From a virus (taxonomy: Duplodnaviria; Heunggongvirae; Uroviricota; Caudoviricetes), in the IMG/VR virus record IMGVR_UViG_2850808358_000004: DNA of 33,562 bases; one strand, 5' to 3'. A model generated the notes under the pieces. The model was not told where the DNA came from. It did not search any database and was given only the letters and a program-made list of their open reading frames with translations. Shown here piece after piece: positions 1 to 10,605 of this stretch. The first letter of the stretch is position 1, and the number at the start of each line of letters is the position of its first letter. Position numbers and translations under genes: made by a program.

Positions 1-57
1 GGTATCCGTTCTGCTGAAGTGTCATGGCGTTGATTTTACGGTGACTCTTCGACAGTG

Positions 58-83
58 AAAAGAAAAAAGGCCGCAGAGCGGCC
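58..83 (-). terminator. Rho-independent terminator-like hairpin (GGCCGC-AGA-GCGGCC at 69-83) followed on the minus strand by a T-rich run (complement of the A-run at 58-68)
   Basis: Perfect 6-bp inverted repeat with 3-nt loop directly read in sequence; T-tract lies 3' on the minus strand, immediately downstream of the leftward gene ending at 193. Confidence 0.45.
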
Positions 84-192
84 ATAATCACAACCCAAAA
101 CCAATAAGTTACATAATTATCAAAGAGTTACAGACACACAAAAACACAGCCAACCACAACAAATAACATAGATGTGGTCAATTTGTGGATCA

Positions 193-630
193 TCATCCAA
201 CAAATTTAGCAACAAATACAGCAACCGCCGCCGTGAAAATGGTTGTGCATACTGGCACAATAATGCCACTCCAACGCCACTTCGTATTATCATCAACCTT
301 GTCAAACCGCCGATTCATCTCATCCATAATCTTGTCAAAGCGTTTATCCATCGCTTCGGTAAGCTCACCCTTCAGGCTGTTAATGTCTGATTTGAGCTGC
401 TCTTTCAGGTGAGCTGTATCAGATTTAAGCTCACCTTTCAGATTCGCAATATCGCATTCAAGAGCACCTTTCAGATGTGCTATGTCTGCTTTGAGTTCAC
501 CTTTCACCTCACCAACATCGGCTTTAGTTGAGAGGTTTGTAGTGCGTTCAGCAAGCGTCGCAAGGTCGTTTCTTGTTAGCGATAAATCACCTTCGAGCCG
601 CTCAATTCGCCTTTCAAGTTTATCTGACAT
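193..630 (-). CDS. Coiled-coil protein with four to five 11-residue repeats and a C-terminal transmembrane helix (architecture resembles phage XhlA/DUF1640-type membrane-anchored coiled-coil proteins)
   Basis: ORF track 193..747; likely true start is the ATG at 630 (MSDKLERR...), preceded by GGAGG 5 nt upstream; hydrophobic C-terminus IIVPVCTTIFTAAVAVFVAKFV; repeat units ELKADIAHLKG / ALECDIANLKG / ELKSDTAHLKE / QLKSDINSLKG. Confidence 0.55.
   Translation of the reverse strand: MSDKLERRIERLEGDLSLTRNDLATLAERTTNLSTKADVGEVKGELKADIAHLKGALECDIANLKGELKSDTAHLKEQLKSDINSLKGELTEAMDKRFDKIMDEMNRRFDKVDDNTKWRWSGIIVPVCTTIFTAAVAVFVAKFVG
361..522. repeat. Tandem 33-bp repeats (about 5 copies) encoding the hendecad coiled-coil repeats of the 193..630 gene
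   Basis: Units read directly: tttgagctgctctttcaggtgagctgtatcaga / tttaagctcacctttcagattcgcaatatcgca / ttcaagagcacctttcagatgtgctatgtctgc / tttgagttcacctttcacctcaccaacatcggc, with a degenerate copy upstream. Confidence 0.7.
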
Positions 631-730
631 TCCGCCTCCACTACTGCCGCCATCGCCACCATGATAAAGCACATCACGCTCAGAATGCGACACACTACCT
701 GCTGAATTACCGAAAAGATTTCTTGCTACA

Positions 731-1231
731 TTACCCATTATCACCATCCTGCGCTTTGTCTTTCTCCAACCACTTCAGCACCGCAGACGTACGATAAAGG
801 CTCAGGTAACCACAATTCAGGCAATGCAGCGTGTAATAAGTTTTGCGCATATCAGGTATGCTCTTAACATCACCCAAAAAAGTATAAGATACATAATGCT
901 TTATGTTCTCTTTAATTAACTCACTCTGCTCCTCCAGGGGTAGGTTGTTAAAATTTTCTGGTTTCTTATTTTTATCCCAGCAAAGATCCATACTTTCAGG
1001 AACAGATAATCGCGACGATCCACATGAAGGGCAGACACTGGAGACCCCCTTCTCAGACAAGAAACGGAAGAAGATTTCTGGCGTAATCTCCATCAGCCGC
1101 TCTTTATGTTTTTTGACACGACTCATCGACTTCTTATTGATTTCATCAGCTTCTTCTTTGCATTTATCTTCTATATATTTCGATAGTAAATAGTCATATA
1201 ACTCTTTTTTTGTAGGTTTTTTTATTTCCAT
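731..1231 (-). CDS. Hypothetical protein with two CxxC pairs (CPSC ... CLNC; possible zinc ribbon), markedly AT-rich relative to neighbours
   Basis: 166-aa ORF, K/E-rich, start ATG 2 nt from the integrase stop; same strand as int and the coiled-coil gene; no recognisable catalytic motif. Confidence 0.5.
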   Translation of the reverse strand: MEIKKPTKKELYDYLLSKYIEDKCKEEADEINKKSMSRVKKHKERLMEITPEIFFRFLSEKGVSSVCPSCGSSRLSVPESMDLCWDKNKKPENFNNLPLEEQSELIKENIKHYVSYTFLGDVKSIPDMRKTYYTLHCLNCGYLSLYRTSAVLKWLEKDKAQDGDNG

Positions 1232-1233
1232 AG

Positions 1234-2210
1234 TTACATTCCTCCCAAGGGATTAAACCTCACCGCATCCTGCAAGTAATCCGGCGCAAGATGGGCATAA
1301 ATCATCGTTGTCTGAATCTTTGCGTGCCCCAGAATTTTCTGGAGCGTCAGAATATTGCCGCCGTTCATCATGAAATGACTGGCGAAGGTGTGGCGCAGCG
1401 CATGAACAGCCTGGCCGTCAGGAATATCAGGTGCGACCGTTTTGATAACATCACGAACCAGTGGATAATCCAGTGTTGGAAACACCAGCTTTCCGCCCCG
1501 TTTTTTGATCTTCTCAAACAGGCTTTCAGAGATAGGAACGGTACGGTTTTTACTGTTCTTTGTTTTTGAAAACGTGATTCGGCAATGAAGAACGCGACGC
1601 TGCTCCAGTGCCTCTACCTCGCCCATCGCGCCCCGGTCGACAGAAGGATTTCGACAGCCAGCCGTTCATCGGGATTTTCAGCCAGTGCATCCAGCAACTG
1701 AACACATTCAGACTTACTCAGATATCCCATTTCGCGCTCGTTAACCTTCATTCCTTTAAGGCCTTGAACGGGGTTATCGTTAAGAAAATGGCCGGATGAG
1801 ATGAGTGCGGTAAACATCGCGCTTAACGCCCCAATCTCTCGATTTATGGTGCTGGGTTGTATCCCCTGCTCTATCCTGTACACACGCAGCTCGGTGAGCA
1901 TCGTTGTATTAAGTTTATGCACGCACGGGTCATCCATTGCCTCACTCAAGCGCAGCAATTTAAGGTGCGTGTTATGCCCTGACCTCATTAACTGGCCGTG
2001 GTATTTCCACCACAAGTCAATAAGCACTGACAGCGGACGGCGATCAATGGAGTTTCCTTTCCACTCATTGTTATGCTGTTGCGCCAGCACCCACCGCTCA
2101 TATAAAACTGCATCCGATTTCGTTTTAAATTTTTTGCGAATGCGTTTGCCTTTACGCCCCTCAGGGCGCATGTCAAGAAGATACCCTCCCGGAATTGATT
2201 TTATGCTCAT
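1234..2210 (-). CDS. int: Tyrosine integrase (P2/186-type), interrupted by a single-base frameshift near 1615-1630 (possible pseudogene or sequencing indel)
   Basis: Two ORF-track pieces (1614..2210 N-terminal; 1234..1626 C-terminal) that together give about 325 aa; C-terminal piece carries HALRHTFASHFMMNGGNILTLQKILGH...MIYAHL typical of the tyrosine recombinase catalytic domain; frames join at ...STGARW / GEVEALEQ in a G-run. Confidence 0.85.
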
Positions 2211-2258
2211 TCGTGAAACCCCGGCGTTACAAGACCACCATGCCCCAGCGTTCCATGA

Positions 2259-2570
2259 TTAGCCGGGCTGTGTGCCAGTCTTGCGGGGGCTTTGTGAACG
2301 AGATGTGACATCGTACCCATCAGGGGAGAGAGCCGGGCTGATCTGCCCCGCAGCCTCATTTGTTTTTCCTGTCATAAGCCACATTGTGTACTTTTCGAAA
2401 TCTTTAGAATTAATTACGCGATCGACAACGCTTAAACCAACCTCTCTTTTGCCACTCTCATAATTCTTTATGGTTCCGAGATTTATCCCGGTAACATCGG
2501 CAAACTCAACTTGAGTTAACCCTTCACTCTTCCGTATCTCTTTCAGTTTTTTTTCATACCCACTTGACAT
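2259..2570 (-). CDS. Immunity repressor, P2 C-type (small HTH repressor)
   Basis: 103 aa; LTQVEFADVTGINLGTIKNYESGKR HTH; divergent from the early operon and adjacent to int, the position and size of the P2 C repressor; GGAGA upstream of ATG. Confidence 0.7.
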   Translation of the reverse strand: MSSGYEKKLKEIRKSEGLTQVEFADVTGINLGTIKNYESGKREVGLSVVDRVINSKDFEKYTMWLMTGKTNEAAGQISPALSPDGYDVTSRSQSPRKTGTQPG

Positions 2571-2662
2571 GGCAGTCTCCAGACGACTAAATTAATATCA
2601 AAAGTAGTCTACCGACGACTTTTTGGTAACAAATAACCACAGATAGAACAGGTTATCACATC
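2571..2662. promoter_or_regulatory. Divergent repressor/early promoter-operator (immunity switch) region
   Basis: 92-bp AT-rich gap between divergent C-type repressor and cox-like genes; direct repeats CAGACGACTAAA and CCGACGACTTTT about 34 bp apart resemble direct-repeat operators; exact promoters not determined. Confidence 0.45.
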
Positions 2663-2941
2663 ATGGCAGAGGTCTTGAATACATACGAACAGGAAGACAT
2701 TGAGCGTTTAGCGGCGTTCTACCCATACCGCGATGAGCATGGATTACCAATACTTGAAGAAAGCCTGAAAGATTACGCAAAGCGTACCAACCAAGCTGTT
2801 AACACAGTGAAAAGACAGGCTGACAGAGGTTCGATTCCCCTCACACCTGGTAAAAAGAACTCAAGACGCACAGTAAATCTCTTCGCAATTTTCCTGAAAA
2901 CAATCAGGAGCGCAGAGAAATACGTGCAGATGACAAAATAA
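2663..2941 (+). CDS. cox: Cox/Apl-like excisionase and early-operon regulator
   Basis: 92 aa, first gene of the rightward operon opposite the repressor; segment YAKRTNQAVNTVKRQADRGSIP is HTH-like, as in P2 Cox. Confidence 0.5.
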   Translation: MAEVLNTYEQEDIERLAAFYPYRDEHGLPILEESLKDYAKRTNQAVNTVKRQADRGSIPLTPGKKNSRRTVNLFAIFLKTIRSAEKYVQMTK

Positions 2942-2955
2942 CGAGGTGTCATTTT

Positions 2956-3294
2956 ATGCTGAAGCAACGCCGTAATTTTCGCACCGAAACGGAACGCCAA
3001 GCTAACCGTTTCGCTACCAGCGCATCACGCAGCAACATCCGCTACAGCCTGAGCGAGACGCACGCAACGCCAGATGGCCATACAGTAAAACAAATTGGCG
3101 AGCATACCTGGATGATTGAGAAAGCTGGAATAGTGGTCCACAAATACCCGCGCAATCCGTTTACCGGAAACCGCATTTTTGCTCTGAGCTGCGGCGACAA
3201 TCAGTTCGGGCAGGATTTCACGTTGTACGAAGCGCTACGCACAGTTGATCGCCTTCTTTACGGAGAAAATTTTATTAAACAGGCTGAGTTATAA
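2956..3294 (+). CDS. Hypothetical early protein
   Basis: 112-aa ORF with GAGGTG RBS, in early operon. Confidence 0.5.
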   Translation: MLKQRRNFRTETERQANRFATSASRSNIRYSLSETHATPDGHTVKQIGEHTWMIEKAGIVVHKYPRNPFTGNRIFALSCGDNQFGQDFTLYEALRTVDRLLYGENFIKQAEL

Positions 3295-3335
3295 CAGCGG
3301 GTTTATCACCGGTTATTTTTAACGAGGACTCCGTT

Positions 3336-3578
3336 ATGAGAAAACACACAGCAGAACAGGTAAACGAATTTCTGCAGGGATATTACTTCGATAACGAAAT
3401 TAATCCCCGCGCCAGAAAAACACACTTCGAAGTAATGAAGTGCGGAATATTCAGCGTCCGCAACACCCTGTTTTGTTCAAAAGATACGGGAGCCAGCGAG
3501 GACCTTAAAGAACTTAACCGGATGGCGAAACAATTAACGGATGGCATGGTTCCCGAACCCGCAATAATTACGGAGTAA
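3336..3578 (+). CDS. Hypothetical early protein
   Basis: 80-aa ORF with GAGGA RBS. Confidence 0.5.
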   Translation: MRKHTAEQVNEFLQGYYFDNEINPRARKTHFEVMKCGIFSVRNTLFCSKDTGASEDLKELNRMAKQLTDGMVPEPAIITE

Positions 3579-3583
3579 TCACG

Positions 3584-3769
3584 ATGAATTTCAGTTATTC
3601 ATTCAGTGTACCGGAGTCGTTATTTGTTATCACACTGATTGCAGCCGCAATGTTTTTTGCCATCTGCATACTGACACTTATTGATACATGGCGGGAAATA
3701 CGCGACAGACGTCGCCAGAAAAAAAACGGGATGCATACAACGCATTCATTCAGCACAAAGAAGACGTAG
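3584..3769 (+). CDS. Small membrane protein (single TM helix)
   Basis: 61 aa; hydrophobic stretch LFVITLIAAAMFFAICILTLI followed by basic tail RDRRRQKK; GGAGT RBS. Confidence 0.4.
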   Translation: MNFSYSFSVPESLFVITLIAAAMFFAICILTLIDTWREIRDRRRQKKNGMHTTHSFSTKKT

Positions 3770-3865
3770 AGCGTAAAGCACGCCGCCTCTTTAGTTAATT
3801 AACCGGTTTCGTTAATACACCGCTCACGCGGCGGGATTCGCACAATCTGAATAAGGGAAATAAAA

Positions 3866-4288
3866 ATGATTAATCCGACACTCACCCTCAAAGATAAAGC
3901 CCTTGCGGGCGCAATGTTTTTACGCAACTACGCCGCAATGATGGCTGACACTGACAACCCGATGATGGTGCTGTCAGTGGAGCCTCACCTTATCGCCGCA
4001 GACGCAATTGAACAGGTGGTACAGGAAAACACCTGTCTGAGAAATCAGCTTGCCACCCTTCAGACAGCAGCTGACCCGGCAAAGGAAAGTGCTGAACACA
4101 CCTGCCACACCACATTCATCAAAGGGACCCGCGTATGTCTGAAAAACAGTCCGCAGCAACGCGGAACGGTCGTTGACACCCGCACCAGTAGCCCCGCCAT
4201 TGACCGGGTTTTCGTCCGTTTCGATTCCCCCTTCGAGGAAGACCGCTGGGTAAAGACCAGAAACCTGGAAATAACCCCCGACAAATGA
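3866..4288 (+). CDS. Hypothetical early protein
   Basis: 140-aa ORF with AAGGGA RBS. Confidence 0.5.
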   Translation: MINPTLTLKDKALAGAMFLRNYAAMMADTDNPMMVLSVEPHLIAADAIEQVVQENTCLRNQLATLQTAADPAKESAEHTCHTTFIKGTRVCLKNSPQQRGTVVDTRTSSPAIDRVFVRFDSPFEEDRWVKTRNLEITPDK

Positions 4289-4461
4289 AGCTGATTATCC
4301 CTGCGCGACACCGCAAAAACCGGATGAAGCCAGGGGGAAAGCCGGAGCGGGCAGCAAGGGCGGCATACCGTCGCCTGCTGAAGGGGGACCGGTCACACGT
4401 GCGACGGCTGGAGCGGGTACCGCCCGCGTCATCAACGTCATGTACCGTTACCGGCTGTTAA
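4285..4461 (+). CDS. Small arginine-rich protein (58 aa), below the ORF-track size cut-off
   Basis: ATG at 4285 overlaps the upstream stop (ATGA); translation MKLIIPARHRKNRMKPGGKPERAARAAYRRLLKGDRSHVRRLERVPPASSTSCTVTGC read by hand; coding status uncertain. Confidence 0.3.
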   Translation: MKLIIPARHRKNRMKPGGKPERAARAAYRRLLKGDRSHVRRLERVPPASSTSCTVTGC

Positions 4462-4525
4462 GTCTGGACGAAGGCCGGACATGGGTACTGCTTAACCATA
4501 ACGAATACGTGAAGAGGATAAGACG

Positions 4526-5055
4526 ATGTTACAGATGAAATTTAAGCCCTGCTTTATTGACGCATTCCGCAACGGACGCAAGACCACATCCCTTCGCCCG
4601 ACGGGGTTTGATTGCTACCAGGCGGGCCAGGAGTCAGCAGAATATTTTCATGAAGACACCCTGCCCCGCAACATCGTTCTTCCCGATTACAGCGCCGGCG
4701 GTACCCTGGTTTTTGAGGAGGGAACCACATTTACCCGCGCATCAGACTTTGCCGGACTCCTGAAAAGACAGCCCTACCGGCAGTATGACAACATTCATCT
4801 GGTCACAGAAAACAAGAACGGCGAAACCGTGCCGTTCGCCGTGGCCTTCATTGCCGATATCGGTGTAATACAGGGCCGCCAGATAACCGATGAAGCGGCC
4901 GTCAGGGACGGCTTTAACCCTGAAAACCATCCCGCGACGAACTCTTTGCATTCATGCGGGACACCTGCCACATAGAAAACCCCAAAAACGAAACCTACTG
5001 GCGGTACACCTTCACCCACATCGTGATGTTGTCGCAGTGGAGGGCTGACGCATGA
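4526..5055 (+). CDS. ASCH-domain (PUA-like) protein, interrupted by a frameshift near 4930-4945
   Basis: ORF 4526..4975 ends ...DEAAVRDGFNPENHP then the C-terminal part (ELFAFMRDTCHIENPKNETYWRYTFTHIVMLSQWRADA) continues in another frame to the stop at 5053-5055; AGAGGA RBS. Confidence 0.5.
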
Positions 5056-5291
5056 AACCCGCCATTATCTGCATTCTGTGCGAGAGCACTGTCACCGGCG
5101 ACCATTACCGCATCAGGGAACGCCACATCAACCCTGACCGTTCGCTGCTGGACAACATCACCGGCCCGGATGATGAACGCGTGATCTGCCTGAACGACGG
5201 CTCGCAGTTACGCGTGCGCAATATCCGGCGCGAAATCACGCTCGAACCCACCCCATTCACACGCGGGAAAAAACCGGAGAGTGACGCATGA
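5052..5291 (+). CDS. Hypothetical early protein
   Basis: 79 aa, ATGA start-stop overlap with the ASCH gene and with dam. Confidence 0.45.
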   Translation: MKPAIICILCESTVTGDHYRIRERHINPDRSLLDNITGPDDERVICLNDGSQLRVRNIRREITLEPTPFTRGKKPESDA

Positions 5292-6250
5292 AAGGTATTC
5301 TGAACCAGCGCTCACCGCTCAAATGGGCGGGCGGCAAATTCAGTATCATGCCGCAGCTGCGCGAATATTTACCCAAAGCCGCCTGCCTGATCGAACCCTT
5401 CGTGGGCGGTGGCTCTGTCTTCATGAATACGGATTACGACCATTACGTATTGTGTGACAGCAACCCCGCGCTGATTAATTTCTACCAGCAACTGACGACC
5501 AACACCATGGAATTAATGGATCGTGCATGGTCACTCTTTAAGGATGGTGGCACACCGGAAGCCTACAAACGCCATCGCGGGGCATTTAACACCATCGCGC
5601 TGGCCACCGACAGATTACGCGGCGAATCCCTGGAATGGGCAGCGCTGTTTCTGTACCTGAACCGCTATTGCTTTAACGGCCTGCACCGCACCAACCAAAA
5701 AGGCGAATTCAATGTGCCATTCGGCAAACACCGCACACCTTATTTCCCCGATCAGGAAATGCGCCTGTTTGCTGATAAAGCCCGCGAGACACGAACCCGC
5801 TTTATTCACGCGGATTTCCGTACAGCCTTCACAATGCCGGCTGAGATCCGCCGTTTTTCTTCAGTGCACGGCGGTATCGCCATTTACTGCGATCCGCCCT
5901 ACCTGCCGCCGGACGGTAAAGAGGCATTCACTCACTACAACGGCCGGGCATTCACCCGTAAAGACCACCGTGACCTTGCGGCGCTCATGATGAACGCCTG
6001 GCAGCGTTACGGTATCCGCCCGGTGGTCTCCAACAGTGACACCACCGAAACCCGGCAAATCTATTCCTCGTTTGAGCTGCACACCCTGAGCGTTCGCCGC
6101 TCTGTTGCTGCCAGCAGCAGCGCACGCCAGCAGGCAAAAGAGGTAATTGGTGTTTATCCGCCAGCCCATAAAAGCCAGCTCCGGGACGTCAATGTGGGCT
6201 GGCCGTCTCCCCTTCACGCTCCACACCCCACCACGGAGATCATGCAATGA
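5288..6250 (+). CDS. dam: DNA adenine methyltransferase (Dam family N6-adenine MTase)
   Basis: N-terminal KWAGGK SAM-binding motif and DPPY catalytic motif read in translation; 320 aa. Confidence 0.9.
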   Translation: MKGILNQRSPLKWAGGKFSIMPQLREYLPKAACLIEPFVGGGSVFMNTDYDHYVLCDSNPALINFYQQLTTNTMELMDRAWSLFKDGGTPEAYKRHRGAFNTIALATDRLRGESLEWAALFLYLNRYCFNGLHRTNQKGEFNVPFGKHRTPYFPDQEMRLFADKARETRTRFIHADFRTAFTMPAEIRRFSSVHGGIAIYCDPPYLPPDGKEAFTHYNGRAFTRKDHRDLAALMMNAWQRYGIRPVVSNSDTTETRQIYSSFELHTLSVRRSVAASSSARQQAKEVIGVYPPAHKSQLRDVNVGWPSPLHAPHPTTEIMQ

Positions 6251-6558
6251 CCGTTATCTATATCGCCGGCCCCATGACGGGAAAGCCTGATTTCAACCGC
6301 ACCGCCTTCACCATGACAGCGACCCGCCTGAGGATGCAGGGCCATACCGTACTCAACCCCGCAACACTCCCTGACGGGCTGAGATACAGGGACTACATGC
6401 TTATCGGGAGCGCCATGCTGCACTGTGCCGATGTGATTTACCTGCTGGATGGCTGGGAGGACTCGCCGGGGGCAAAAGAGGAACACGCCACCGCCCTGAA
6501 ACTGAATCTGATCATCTCCACACCAGAAAGCCGTAAGGAGGCCAAATCATGTTTCTGA
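6247..6558 (+). CDS. DUF4406-type protein (nucleoside 2-deoxyribosyltransferase-like fold)
   Basis: 103 aa; N-terminal VIYIAGPMTG and DGWEDSPGAKEE motifs typical of this family; ATGA overlap with dam. Confidence 0.6.
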   Translation: MTVIYIAGPMTGKPDFNRTAFTMTATRLRMQGHTVLNPATLPDGLRYRDYMLIGSAMLHCADVIYLLDGWEDSPGAKEEHATALKLNLIISTPESRKEAKSCF

Positions 6559-7102
6559 AACCAATGGGGGACCAGGTAAAGCACCGAAGCACGTCAGTGC
6601 ATGGACACAACAGGAAGACGAACTGCTTATCTCGCTTTATCAGGATCACAGCACATGGCAAATGGCTGAACGACTTCAGCGAACCCGCAGCGCAGTGATG
6701 CACCGGATTCTTTTTTTACGTAATCGCGGGTTGATTGGTCGCAAGAAAAAAGCACCGCTGAGTGCAGAAGCCATCGCCTTTCTCATCAAAAACCGTCACG
6801 CAAAAACCGCACGGGAACTGGCCCGGAAGGCGGGATGCAGCGAGTGCACCGTGAGGTACACACTGCATAAACGGGGTTACAGCCTTAAGAAATGCGGCGA
6901 GAGCCACCATTGCACCAGATACAGCGATCGTCTGGCTGAGCTGGTTACGGAGCTACGCGACAGACGCAACATGACGTTCTGCATAATCGCGAAACACATC
7001 AACATCACGATGCAAATGCACATCAGCGATGATACGGCGTTTCACCTCTACAACCGCCGGACCGCCGCCGACGCCCTGTTGTACGAACTGCTGCCGAACT
7101 GA
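6549..7102 (+). CDS. HTH DNA-binding protein, N-terminus likely displaced by a frameshift in the G5 run at 6566-6570
   Basis: ORF track gives 6662..7102; upstream the same frame stays open and protein-like (SAWTQQEDELLISLYQDHSTWQ) but has no start; ATG 6549 has a near-consensus AAGGAGG RBS but is in a different frame; HTH-like segment TARELARKAGCSECTVRYTLHKRGYS. Confidence 0.45.
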
Positions 7103-7423
7103 GTGATCATCATGCACACACAAAAAAAACCGCTTGCCATGTCGCAATCAGTCAGGTTACATTTCCGCTGCACCTCATAAAACGGGTGCCGGGTTTCGCA
7201 GCCCGCTGACAAACATAGCGCACAACCGCGCCAGCGGTTTTTTTGTGCGTACTGTATCGCCACATCTTTTTCGCACACGAATTATGGTGGGGCGTACGGG
7301 GCCGACTTCGGTCGGGCCGGGTTCTATGTTTGCCGGTACTGCGAACCTCGTACGTCTCGCCACCCACAGTTTCGCAGCTCTGGATGGTGAGTTTTCAAAA
7401 CTTACACACATAGAGGCCACATC

Positions 7424-7654
7424 ATGGCAAACCGCAAACAACAGCGCGCATACGCTGCGCGTCGTCACATCCGGACTGAAATCAACCGCAGACTTTTCCG
7501 CGCATCACGCGTCGCGCAAATCATGCACATCAATATGCTGCATGAACGCAGCCACGCGCTGTCAGACAGCTACTGCGCCGCTGTATTCAGCTATCTGGCG
7601 GATGATCTGCACGAGCTTCAACAGCTCATCCAGCAGCAAAACAAACTCCATTAA
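7424..7654 (+). CDS. Hypothetical small basic protein
   Basis: 76 aa, K/R/Q-rich, AGAGG RBS; preferred over the overlapping 198-aa ORF 7134..7730, whose composition looks non-coding. Confidence 0.4.
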   Translation: MANRKQQRAYAARRHIRTEINRRLFRASRVAQIMHINMLHERSHALSDSYCAAVFSYLADDLHELQQLIQQQNKLH

Positions 7655-7726
7655 TTCCTGTTCCGGGCCTTTCCTGCACCTTGCGGCGGGAGGCCTTCGC
7701 ACATCTTTAACAAAGCGAGGTGCAGC

Positions 7727-8116
7727 ATGATTGACCGTCATGACTTCGTAAAATGGGTGCGCACACAGGACACCCGTCTGGCTCCAAAACTTCAGGCAAT
7801 GTTTGATTTCTATCTCCGTGCCCGCGCCAGCCAGGCTCGCACCACAAAACCAGAGAACGCAGGCCCCCTTTATTTCATCGTGGACGACTGTTACCGCGTG
7901 GACTTCACACCACACGGTCTGGCCCTGTACACCCTGACACCACACGGCGACTCCCTGCTGGCGTATTACAACTCCCCTGCCTCCGTGTTTGCAGCAATGC
8001 TGGCGCATCGCACCGCTGGCGGGTGTGCCTCGCTGAGTGAATACACCACTGAGTTTAACCGTCTTTCTGCCCTCTTCTCGCAGGAATGGCAACGCGTGAC
8101 AGGGTGTCAACCATGA
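7727..8116 (+). CDS. Hypothetical protein immediately upstream of the replication gene
   Basis: 129 aa, GAGGTG RBS, stop overlaps the gpA start. Confidence 0.5.
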   Translation: MIDRHDFVKWVRTQDTRLAPKLQAMFDFYLRARASQARTTKPENAGPLYFIVDDCYRVDFTPHGLALYTLTPHGDSLLAYYNSPASVFAAMLAHRTAGGCASLSEYTTEFNRLSALFSQEWQRVTGCQP

Positions 8117-10605
8117 GTGAATTTACCTGGGACTGGAACGAACCACGGCAGGCCATTGACCCAGCCACATTTGCGAAGTATCAGCCTACGCCTGAAACCC
8201 CGTTGCAACAGGCCATACGCTACTACCAGGAAGCAGATCTGAAAGCACAGGAAGTCAGGGAGGCGGAAGAAGAAGCCTTTTTTGTGCAGTCAGACATGGG
8301 TAAAAAACTCATGGTCGCCCTCGATGAGGACGAACGGCGCGAGAAGGTAACACAAAGCATCATCAGCAAGCGCCAGGCAACAGAACAAGACCCGGTGGCC
8401 CGTGCATTTGTCACACTAAAGGCGCTACCTGTTTATCTGCGTGAACCTCTGAGCCGCCGCCTCTCTTTTTTACGTAAGAAGCAGGAATCTGACCGCCAGA
8501 AAGGCAAAAAGAGTCGACCATCAGAGGGCTACGCGCGCGGAACCCTGCGCAAAATATTCGAACGACTGGACCGCACCGACAGCCGCTGGCTGACACCGGG
8601 TTATCGCGCCCTTGCCGGACGCGAACGCCTGGACGATTTGCTGTACCTGCCGCAGCTTAACAAGCACCAGATACAGACGCTGGGCACCATGACGGCGGCA
8701 ATGTTCAGCAGCTCCTTTGAAACACTCTGTGATGGTTTCGGTGCCAGAGATGGCGAGCTGACCATGGAGGTGGCACTGAAGGCGTATCAGATGCTGGCCC
8801 GCATGGCGCTACACCTGCACGCCATGCCTCCACATTATGACGCGCTGACAACAGACAAAGACCGCAAGAACGAACCGGACACGGAACTGCTGCCGGGCGC
8901 AATCCTTCGCCTGACCTGTGCGGACTGGTGGAAACGCAAACTGTGGCTGTTACGTTGCGAGTGGAGAGAAGAACAACTCCGCGCCGCCTGTCTGGTTTCC
9001 AGAAAAACATCGCCCTATCTGAGCCAGGACGCGTTAAGTGAGTTTCGCGCACAGCGCGAGAAAACACGCGATTTCCTGAAAAGTTTCATGCTGGAAAATG
9101 AAGACGGGTTCACGATTGATCTCGAGACAGTGTATTACGCGGGAGTAAGTAACCCGGTTCACCGTAAGGCAGAAATGATGGCCACCATGAAAGGGGCGGA
9201 ACTTATAGCCGAATCCCGTGGCGACAAAGCGGTGTTTCTGACTGTCACCTGCCCGTCAAAATACCACGCAACAACGGAGAACGGTCATCCGAACCCCAAA
9301 TGGAACGGGGCTACCATGCGCGATTCCAGTGATTATCTGGTTAACACTTTTTTTAAAGCCGTTCGTAACAGACTGGACCGCAAGGGCCTGCGCTGGTATG
9401 GCATCCGCACGGTGGAGCCTCACCATGACGGCACGGTGCACTGGCATATGATGGTCTTTGCACATCCTGAAGAAATCGACAGCATCGTGACCATCGCCCG
9501 CGATATTGCCATTCGTGAAGACCGCCACGAGCTGGGCGATGACATAACTCCGCGCTTTAAGGCGGAGTACGTCGACGGTTCGAAAGGTACGCCGACCAGC
9601 TATATCGCCACCTACATCGGAAAGAACCTGGACAGCCACGCCGTGGATGGCATTGACCCGAAAACAGGCAAACCGCGCATCGACGACGAATCAGGAAAGA
9701 CGATGGCAGAAAGCGTGGAACGCGCCATCGGCTGGGCGCGCCTTCACCGGGTCCGCCAGTTCCAGTTCTTTGGCATCCCCTCCCGTCAGGTATGGCGTGA
9801 ACTGCGCCGCCTTGCCAGCCAGATGGCACGCAACCCGGAAGGCCCGCAACGGCTGAAGGATGACGCAATGGATGCGGTTCTTGCTGCCGCTGATGCCGGG
9901 TGTTTTGCCACCTACATAGAGAAACAGGGCGGCGTACTTGTTCCACGTAAGGACTACCTGATTCGCACCGCCTACGACCTCGCAGATGAGCTGAACGATT
10001 ACGGCGAACAGAGCGTACAGATTTACGGGATCTGGTCGCCACTCATCGGGGAATCCTCCCGTGTGTGCACGCATCCGGACAACTGGAAGCTGGTAAGACG
10101 TAAACCGGAAGCGGAAGACAGCGCCCGCGAAAATGGTTTTGACCTTCAGGGCGGCCCTGCCGCCCCTTGGACTCGTGGCAATAACTGTCCCGGTGACGAA
10201 AAAACAGCCGGAACCGGCACAGAAAACAGGCAGCGTGGGTCGCGGCTGACGCTTCCGGAAAGCGGCCTGGCGCACTGGTTGCAGACGTTAACCCGTCACG
10301 AGCGGAAACAGCTCATCAGACAGCTTAAAAATCAGCCGCCCACCACGGATACCGGACAAAATAACACCAGACCAGCATCAGACACCCCTGTCAGGGTGGA
10401 GGTTGTCGTGCCTGTCGACACCACGACCATCGCACAAATCACCCGCGAACTCGACGCGCTGGGTGTGCAGCTGCCTGACGCAGCCATTATTTCCGTGAGT
10501 AACGGTGCCCGCGTTCGCCCGGGCGACGGGCGTATCGCGTACTGGAGCGCCACAACCCGCCGTATCGTCATCACACAGGAGTCGTCAGCGGAGGTAAGAT
10601 CATGA
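8113..10605 (+). CDS. Replication initiation endonuclease, P2 gpA family (rolling-circle HUH initiator)
   Basis: HUH-type motif HHDGTVHWHMMVF and paired tyrosines in TSYIATYIGKN; start taken at ATG 8113 (ATGA overlap with upstream stop) rather than 8086 from the ORF track. Confidence 0.9.
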   Translation: MSEFTWDWNEPRQAIDPATFAKYQPTPETPLQQAIRYYQEADLKAQEVREAEEEAFFVQSDMGKKLMVALDEDERREKVTQSIISKRQATEQDPVARAFVTLKALPVYLREPLSRRLSFLRKKQESDRQKGKKSRPSEGYARGTLRKIFERLDRTDSRWLTPGYRALAGRERLDDLLYLPQLNKHQIQTLGTMTAAMFSSSFETLCDGFGARDGELTMEVALKAYQMLARMALHLHAMPPHYDALTTDKDRKNEPDTELLPGAILRLTCADWWKRKLWLLRCEWREEQLRAACLVSRKTSPYLSQDALSEFRAQREKTRDFLKSFMLENEDGFTIDLETVYYAGVSNPVHRKAEMMATMKGAELIAESRGDKAVFLTVTCPSKYHATTENGHPNPKWNGATMRDSSDYLVNTFFKAVRNRLDRKGLRWYGIRTVEPHHDGTVHWHMMVFAHPEEIDSIVTIARDIAIREDRHELGDDITPRFKAEYVDGSKGTPTSYIATYIGKNLDSHAVDGIDPKTGKPRIDDESGKTMAESVERAIGWARLHRVRQFQFFGIPSRQVWRELRRLASQMARNPEGPQRLKDDAMDAVLAAADAGCFATYIEKQGGVLVPRKDYLIRTAYDLADELNDYGEQSVQIYGIWSPLIGESSRVCTHPDNWKLVRRKPEAEDSARENGFDLQGGPAAPWTRGNNCPGDEKTAGTGTENRQRGSRLTLPESGLAHWLQTLTRHERKQLIRQLKNQPPTTDTGQNNTRPASDTPVRVEVVVPVDTTTIAQITRELDALGVQLPDAAIISVSNGARVRPGDGRIAYWSATTRRIVITQESSAEVRS

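Follow-up and report, generated by a model that had tools for sequence, protein, structure and literature searches.

An exchangeable early-operon cassette built around an orphan Dam methylase in a P2/186-like prophage, and the recurrence of DUF4406 beside DNA methyltransferases

Phage orphan methylases are common and are usually regarded as stand-alone genes. Computational work has placed ASCH domains in fusions or operons with N6A methylases and proposed that they discriminate N6-methyladenine (Iyer, Zhang & Aravind 2016, PMC4738411), and ASCH proteins also stand in predicted toxin–antitoxin (TA)-like operons (PMC7641849). A phage protein resembling nucleoside 2-deoxyribosyltransferases (NDTs), DmtZ, is a dAMP N-glycosidase that also transfers deoxyribose-5-phosphate to 2-aminoadenine, has a Tyr/Asn/Glu triad and works with dATP/dGTP pyrophosphohydrolases (PMC12884076, 2026); its authors built their own hidden Markov model (HMM), no Pfam model having covered their NDT-like proteins. 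For DUF4406 (PF14359), the map of a Brachyspira prophage places an N-6 DNA methylase beside the gene (PMC8845278), and our search of the DUF4406/PF14359 literature found no functional study and no statement of a methyltransferase linkage. Here we describe a locus, positions 4526–6558 of a 33,562-nt viral sequence (IMG/VR record IMGVR_UViG_2850808358_000004; below, “the window” is this whole stretch), that carries an ASCH-like, a Dam methylase, and a DUF4406 gene and is part of the rightward early operon of a P2/186-like prophage of Escherichia/Shigella.

The locus is an exchangeable accessory cassette of that operon, built around an ordinary phage Dam. Its conserved unit is ParE-like/ASCH-like/p79/Dam (p79 being a 79-aa protein); DUF4406 is not part of that unit and, where present, stands inserted between Dam and a SANT/Myb-like gene. 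The features concerned are as follows.

3310–7111, + strand: variable accessory segment of the early operon; unrelated, shorter DNA in close P2-like relatives, with flanks 85–95% identical
4285–4538, + strand: ParE-like gene, 85 aa in relatives; PF24732, E = 1e-9 for an intact relative
4526–5055, + strand: ASCH/PUA-like protein, 176 aa after a 1-nt repair; the open reading frame (ORF) ends at 4975 as sequenced
5052–5291, + strand: p79 (phrog_20193), always flanked by the ASCH-like gene and Dam and sharing an ATGA overlap with each
5288–6250, + strand: orphan D12-class (Dam) N6-adenine DNA methyltransferase, 320 aa; PF02086, E = 2e-52
6247–6558, + strand: DUF4406 protein, 103 aa; PF14359; putative (deoxy)nucleotide N-glycosidase; optional cassette element
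6549–7102, + strand: SANT/Myb-like DNA-binding protein (annotation of relatives, 184 aa; helix-turn-helix matches; phrog_323)

We assembled 30 loci anchored on the ASCH-like gene (25 viral contigs and 5 Salmonella genomes), and all 30 have the order ASCH-like, p79, Dam; a ParE-like gene lies upstream and overlaps the ASCH-like start in 27. These loci carry two types of GpA, the P2-type replication initiator, that are only about 30% identical to each other. DUF4406 follows Dam in just 13 of the 30 blocks and is therefore an optional element rather than a fixed part, so that the four consecutive genes, which a sequence-only reading of the window had joined into one module, do not form an obligate one. 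In the 17 blocks that lack DUF4406 the overlap with the Dam stop is made by the SANT/Myb-like gene itself, and a C5 methylase often comes next. Among 83 P2-like loci anchored on GpA, Dam stands just upstream of gene A in 41, of which only 3 have DUF4406, and none of the 83 has DUF4406 without Dam. Exchange of the segment is seen in blastn comparisons of the window with relatives L083–L108, where 3310–7111 is swapped wholesale for other DNA; one of these (L087) matches the window at 1–3310 and 7111–10195, with 1.9 kb of different sequence between.

The wider company of DUF4406 was surveyed in 239 DUF4406-anchored loci from three queries (an enterobacterial alignment, Acidovorax phage Alfacinha3 and Arthrobacter phage TaylorSipht), dereplicated to 141 groups, with methyltransferases found by iteratively built family HMMs and adjacency defined as a methyltransferase within 300 nt on the same strand. 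The nearest methyltransferase was adjacent in 39 of the 141 groups (28%), elsewhere within 6 kb in 32, and absent within 6 kb in 70. Uniform placement would give 2.9 adjacent cases, or 5.7 with strand given, and a test with a 20% null still gives p of about 1e-10. The adjacent enzymes, upstream or downstream, are of the N6_N4 (13), C5 (12), PF05869 (7), D12 (6), and MT-A70 (5) types, and Pfam confirmed neighbour methyltransferases as PF05869, PF00145, PF01555, PF05063, and PF02086. By query set, adjacency was found in 18 of 44, 4 of 45, and 17 of 52 groups. Methyltransferases are the commonest neighbour function of DUF4406, the next family having n ≤ 7, among neighbours that fall into 175 clusters among about 260. 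The co-occurrence of DUF4406 with Dam and ASCH that had been put forward for checking is non-random but divides the cluster in two: the ASCH-like gene, p79, and Dam are inseparable (30 of 30 loci), and DUF4406 stands beside a DNA methyltransferase (39 of 141 groups, against about 3–6 expected) whatever its class, with no particular tie to Dam or ASCH. A count limited to D12 Dam near DUF4406 (12 of 80 loci, almost all P2-like), which had suggested little linkage, was replaced after a motif screen showed that methyltransferase families had been missed.

Some loci join these functions more closely. At 3412–6315 of L212, a single 948-aa ORF combines a helicase-like N-terminus, an N6_N4 methylase (residues 495–809), and DUF4406 (842–931); it is the sole helicase/methylase/DUF4406 fusion seen and is a candidate that could be an assembly artefact. 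Large fused methyltransferases lie directly upstream of DUF4406 in three contigs of lambdoid type (L057, L069, and L063), either C5 with PF05869 Dam (636–665 aa) or C5 with D12 Dam (791 aa). Nucleotide enzymes appear as well: in actinophage KashFlow, gp162 is a fusion of DUF4406 to a MazG-like pyrophosphohydrolase, and in Mycobacterium phage BoostSeason (L361, 1548–2935) gp55 (253 aa, DUF4406 at its C-terminus) shares an overlap with gp56, a PF18909 dATP/dGTP diphosphohydrolase (E = 2e-39). The BoostSeason pair suggests a two-step pathway from dNTP through deoxynucleoside monophosphate (dNMP) to base in a phage with a canonical genome. In other loci the genes around DUF4406 encode polymerase, clamp, helicase, and RusA proteins. 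A 212-aa neighbour (cluster 23, with a GRKTQTRR motif) was tried as a second ASCH-like partner of DUF4406 and dropped, having no Pfam match.

The identity of the DUF4406 protein, already proposed for the window, held up (PF14359, E = 6e-30, 104 bits against a cut-off of 22, profile positions 2–89 of 91), and its predicted structure (predicted local distance difference test, pLDDT, 88) has the alpha/beta fold of nucleoside 2-deoxyribosyltransferases and DNPH1, with 1t1j, the CMP hydrolase MilB, NDTs, and Rcl/DNPH1 as best fold matches. In the family alignment Y5 and E79 are each conserved at ≥90% and N37 and D43 are invariant, at the ends of strands 1, 2, and 3; the catalytic triad used for reference was Tyr, Asp or Asn, and a Glu nucleophile, as set for NDT, Rcl, and DmtZ in PMC12884076. 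Some relatives have weak PF05014 matches. Single and profile searches against Protein Data Bank (PDB) sequences gave no meaningful match, and searches of PADLOC and NCBIfam gave none. The family spans many taxa, with 533 phage records, and occurs in about 1% of the phages sequenced. We take DUF4406 to be a small N-glycosidase that would act on (deoxy)nucleotides or nucleosides and has been recruited repeatedly beside methyltransferases; DmtZ is best treated as a probable analogue of it and is not counted as a family member.

The Dam assignment likewise stood. The protein scores 178.8 bits against PF02086 (cut-off 22; profile positions 1–252 of 253) and 233.8 bits against TIGR00571 (cut-off 114.85), matches the E. 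coli Dam (EcoDam) structure 2g1p with E = 9e-58, and aligns with EcoDam at its S-adenosylmethionine (SAM)-binding FxGxG motif (FVGGGSVF, residues 38–45) and its catalytic DPPY motif (YCDPPYLP, about 199–206). Among the GATC-contacting residues of EcoDam (K9, Y119, N120, L122, R124, P134, R137, and Y138), equivalents of K9, N120, L122, R124, and P134 are kept. Its score against NF008152, the NCBIfam equivalog for chromosomal Dam, is 236 bits, below the cut-off of 441, and so marks it as a phage paralogue, not the housekeeping Dam; the best PADLOC model is “orphan methyltransferase” (E = 1e-81). Searches of the adjoining genes with Pfam, PADLOC, and NCBIfam gave no nuclease or defence match and no restriction-enzyme partner. 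By its family and motifs this is probably an ordinary, GATC-specific phage orphan methylase, and an anti-restriction role may be proposed for it purely from knowledge of such enzymes. GATC occurs 93 times in the window against 145 expected (ratio 0.64), a shortage compatible with, though not specific to, restriction pressure on GATC; CTAG occurs once against 10.7 expected.

The sequence-only reading had also called the first gene an ASCH-domain protein. A low-confidence model (pLDDT 60) suggests a PUA/ASCH-like beta-barrel, and the call falls short in Pfam, where the repaired protein scores 18.2 bits against PF04266 (E = 0.004), under the gathering score of 21.2. Within its family, 6 of 27 members match PF04266 at E ≤ 0.01 (best 1.2e-5), and a few database members carry a precomputed match. 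The family alignment has a nearly invariant G17, conserved K19 and R24, and an invariant D128, with a G-R-K-T-x-x-x-R motif at the N-terminus, a later conserved acidic residue, and a variable insert at residues 30–75; this Gly-x-Lys...Arg plus acidic arrangement may correspond to a YqfB-type catalytic constellation. Nearly all of the 116 ASCH-like clusters found bear the name of Salmonella, Escherichia, or Shigella. No meaningful match came from single and profile searches of PDB sequences, and none at all from PADLOC and NCBIfam. For p79, Pfam, NCBIfam, and PADLOC gave no match, only PHROG. The ASCH-like protein, with p79, behaves as a lineage-specific companion of Dam, which fits the published association (PMC4738411).

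All four ORFs given for the window were recovered on the + strand, at 4526–4975, 5052–5291, 5288–6250, and 6247–6558. They had been described as linked throughout by ATGA start–stop overlaps; this is true at 5288–5291 and 6247–6250 but not at the first junction as sequenced, where ORF1 is frameshifted and stops at 4975, 76 nt ahead of the next ATG. Relatives that are 96–98% identical have CCCC in ORF1 where the window has CCC, at about 4929–4931, and with the base restored ORF1 encodes a 176-aa protein that matches phrog_27392 end to end (E = 9e-91) and whose TGA (5053–5055) overlaps the ATG at 5052. Comparison with an E. coli prophage of 98.5% identity shows 13 isolated 1-nt insertions or deletions (indels) in the window, every one in a homopolymer run and 10 of them bases absent from the window (positions 3316, 3788, 4275, 4931, 6571, 7122, 12628, 13653, 15843, 15947, 16082, 17544, and 32630); portal, terminase, and capsid-region genes are among those hit, portal and terminase being split. 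The set looks like sequencing error, the alternative being a decaying prophage, and we consider the ORF1 break probably such an error. The SANT/Myb-like gene, which the loss of one base from a G run at about 6566–6571 splits in two, is probably broken in the same way. A programmed frameshift in the ASCH-like gene was rejected, as the same indel type occurs at 12 other places, structural genes included. The overlap chain itself exceeds 4526–6558, the ParE-like gene (ending at 4538) overlapping ORF1 by 13 nt and the SANT/Myb-like gene (starting at 6549) overlapping the DUF4406 stop by 10 nt. Since 4-nt overlaps are frequent all over the prophage, by the annotation of a relative, the ATGA overlaps alone are not above chance for a phage operon.

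The ParE-like gene is frameshifted in the window by a different lesion, a CCGC tandem repeat present twice rather than three times at about 4430–4440 (by alignment, and by tblastn in two frames). The same 4-nt deletion occurs in the independent complete genome of E. coli CFSAN029787 and is therefore taken as real; four related viral contigs (L333, L337, L340, and L341) have shortened ParE-like matches. The repeat loss may be a case of on/off switching by slippage, or may have inactivated a toxin-like gene. In another P2-like lineage (L122, L146, and L009) a 188-aa and a 79-aa protein directly precede a Dam of 314–326 aa, without the ASCH-like gene or p79, and that 79-aa protein clusters with the ParE-like fragment of the window. 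ParE-like genes may thus be linked more widely to this Dam subgroup.

At roughly even chances, we favour the reading that the locus is a swappable ParE-like/ASCH-like/p79/Dam cassette, with optional DUF4406, serving methylation and nucleotide housekeeping. It is built on gene identities, folds, gene order, and the statistical linkage, from which every biochemical activity and substrate is predicted. An early transcript, on induction or infection, would yield Dam, and GATC on replicating phage DNA would be methylated, which would shield that DNA from methylation-sensitive GATC restriction, mark it, or both; family membership and the conserved EcoDam contact residues suggest this step. The ASCH-like protein would then act on the product of Dam, either reading N6-methyladenine or hydrolysing a modified nucleoside in the way of YqfB, as its predicted ASCH-like fold, the conserved K/R/D residues, and the invariable link to Dam suggest. 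DUF4406, finally, would split the base from the sugar(-phosphate) of a nucleoside or a (deoxy)nucleoside monophosphate. Methyltransferases of five families and dNTP pyrophosphohydrolases beside DUF4406 suggest nucleotide housekeeping alongside DNA methylation, and the candidate tasks are removal or salvage of methylated dNMPs (e.g. N6-methyl-dAMP) and removal of the inhibitory S-adenosylhomocysteine (SAH), either of which could explain a link to all SAM-dependent DNA methylases.

Several points weigh against this reading. The activities of all cassette proteins are predictions, and the results do not distinguish between methylated dNMPs and SAH as targets of DUF4406. Dam differs from EcoDam at Y119F, R137K, and Y138H, so its GATC specificity is itself a prediction, and the host (E. 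coli/Shigella) has its own Dam, making a second GATC methylase of doubtful benefit. The ASCH assignment combines a sub-threshold Pfam score with a low-confidence model. On the linkage side, about half of the DUF4406 groups have no methyltransferase within 6 kb, the Alfacinha3-like set has adjacency in only 4 of 45 groups, and no adjacent methyltransferase was seen in eight isolated phages of other taxa; moreover, with accessory genes gathered in hot spots the uniform null is too lenient, and loci of shared ancestry stay partly non-independent even after dereplication.

It is possible, though on balance we doubt it, that these are accessory (“moron-like”) genes with nothing in common but a hypervariable slot in the early operon, their tight packing and ATGA overlaps being generic and no joint function existing. 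The replacement of the whole segment in close relatives, the frequency of DUF4406-less blocks, the 70 groups without a nearby methyltransferase, the extreme diversity of DUF4406 neighbours, and the commonness of 4-nt overlaps all speak for such a slot, but it does not account well for an ASCH-like/p79/Dam order that is invariant beside two very different replication modules, nor for methyltransferase adjacency at about 7–13 times the uniform expectation, across five families, both orientations, and one fusion, with significance retained under the 20% null. A narrower version of the housekeeping idea, which we hold to be rather unlikely, makes DUF4406 a dedicated methyltransferase helper: an NDT-fold N-glycosidase that would destroy or salvage N6-methyl-dAMP and 5-methyl-dCMP, against their off-target re-incorporation, or would cleave SAH, against product inhibition, with ASCH-like/p79 as a second “methyl-adenine handling” layer tied to one Dam lineage. 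It would explain why DUF4406 stands beside five unrelated methyltransferase families and in one fusion.

The remaining explanations seem to us improbable. DUF4406 might be an anti-defence hydrolase of TIR/NDT fold that acts on NAD-derived or nucleotide immune signals, or might counter nucleotide-depleting defences, in keeping with its early expression in temperate phages of many taxa; yet it has no PADLOC match, its partners are methyltransferases and dNTP pyrophosphohydrolases rather than sponge or anti-signal genes, and a search for supporting literature found none. We think it less probable still that ParE-like/ASCH-like/p79 form a unit of TA or addiction type, in which Dam would be cargo or modulator, comparable to PUA-family (EVE/ASCH) proteins in predicted TA and restriction–modification contexts. 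The overlap of a ParE-like toxin domain gene with the ASCH-like start, the known occurrence of ASCH proteins in predicted TA-like operons, and the inactivation of the ParE-like gene by repeat slippage in one sublineage that includes the window (a kind of loss common for toxin genes) would suit such a unit, but Pfam, PADLOC, and NCBIfam found no antitoxin-type domain in the ASCH-like protein or p79, and the block stays intact where the ParE-like gene is missing or broken. Least probable in our view is a modification beyond methylation, as the sequence-only reading had suggested, in which DUF4406, being NDT-like, would work on nucleotides to put in or swap a non-canonical base, in the manner of DmtZ with 2-aminoadenine. 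The retained Tyr/Asn-Asp/Glu residues and the under-representation of GATC in the window agree with it; however, DUF4406 is optional in otherwise identical cassettes, and no base-biosynthesis gene (PurZ-like, deazaguanine, or hydroxymethylase), dedicated polymerase, or dNTPase was found in the window or its relatives. P2-like phages, moreover, use host enzymes for replication. Pfam, PHROG, PADLOC, and NCBIfam showed no base-synthesis, glycosyl-transfer, or amino-transfer genes at the locus, and nothing found indicates hypermodification.

The surroundings of the cassette are those of a P2/186-like prophage, and its early-operon placement, which had been proposed, is well founded: related prophages are annotated with a divergent integrase and repressor arm followed by the rightward early operon, and GpA lies downstream. 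Of 5,426 complete E. coli genomes, 5 contain prophages 96–98% identical to the window; at the protein level the closest matches carry the label Shigella sonnei, and megablast of the locus against 50,697 phage records gave no match. The features outside the cassette are these.

7170–7244, + strand: isrK Hfq-binding small RNA (Rfam RF01394, 69 bits, above the gathering score), just downstream of the cassette
7224–7239, + strand: intrinsic-terminator-like hairpin, inside the isrK span
7280–7367, + strand: C4 antisense RNA (Rfam RF01695, 81.8 bits, above the gathering score), just downstream of the cassette
8086–10605, + strand: GpA, P2-type replication initiator (replication endonuclease; PF05840, E = 9e-128), marker for the P2/186-like context

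A sigma-70-like promoter at 2564–2593 precedes the first rightward ORF, a further promoter-like site lies at 7134–7163, and no convincing + strand terminator was found within 4526–6558. Given the terminator-like hairpin and the two RNAs that follow the cassette, it may be transcriptionally separated from the replication genes. The isrK and C4 RNAs, in a region conserved at 87–92% in related prophages, fill the otherwise “ORF-free” gap between cassette and replication genes, and because of them we take a 198-aa ORF starting with TTG at 7134–7730 to be almost certainly spurious.

The gene families of the locus are all in existing catalogues, many annotated genomes of Salmonella, E. coli, and Shigella contain the cassette, and the ASCH–methylase association is published, but our literature search found no description of a fixed ParE-like/ASCH-like/p79/Dam block or of a statistical link between DUF4406 and methyltransferases. 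The latter is the main new lead of the locus. The locus suggests two kinds of companion for phage orphan methylases, ASCH-like with p79 on the one hand and DUF4406 on the other. With the first locked to one Dam lineage, the prediction that ASCH domains read or process N6-methyladenine becomes tractable to test, and the enrichment of the second beside methyltransferases and dNTP pyrophosphohydrolases provides a concrete list of substrates. Should the DUF4406 link prove true, phage epigenetic anti-restriction would gain a step of nucleotide housekeeping; otherwise the cassette amounts to a commonplace mosaic of early accessory genes.

Compared with known systems, the window Dam shares its Pfam family and motifs with E. 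coli Dam and with the phage orphan Dam genes of P2/186-like phages, many of which also occupy the same early-operon place just upstream of gene A. Its subgroup differs in length (319–321 aa, with a C-terminal extension) and in always having the ASCH-like gene and p79 before it, whereas the more frequent type of P2-like Dam gene has neither and follows a TraR/DksA-type zinc-finger gene. The ASCH-like protein may share an N-terminal motif with a later acidic residue and, by its low-confidence model, a PUA-like beta-barrel fold with YqfB (N4-acetylcytidine amidohydrolase) and other ASCH proteins, and its cassette has the same operonic tie to an N6A methylase as the ASCH proteins of PMC4738411; at 176 aa it is longer than YqfB, with the additional variable insert and the sub-threshold Pfam score, and its family is all but confined to P2-like prophages of Salmonella, Escherichia, and Shigella. 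DUF4406, at about 100 aa, is far shorter than the N-glycosidases of the NDT superfamily (the dNMP hydrolase DNPH1/Rcl, the CMP/hmCMP hydrolase MilB, the dAMP hydrolase/transferase DmtZ, and the NDTs), has no detectable sequence similarity to solved structures, and forms a Pfam family of its own. A frequent DNA methyltransferase neighbour is a trait of DUF4406 for which we found no report among DNPH1/Rcl, MilB, DmtZ, or the NDTs.

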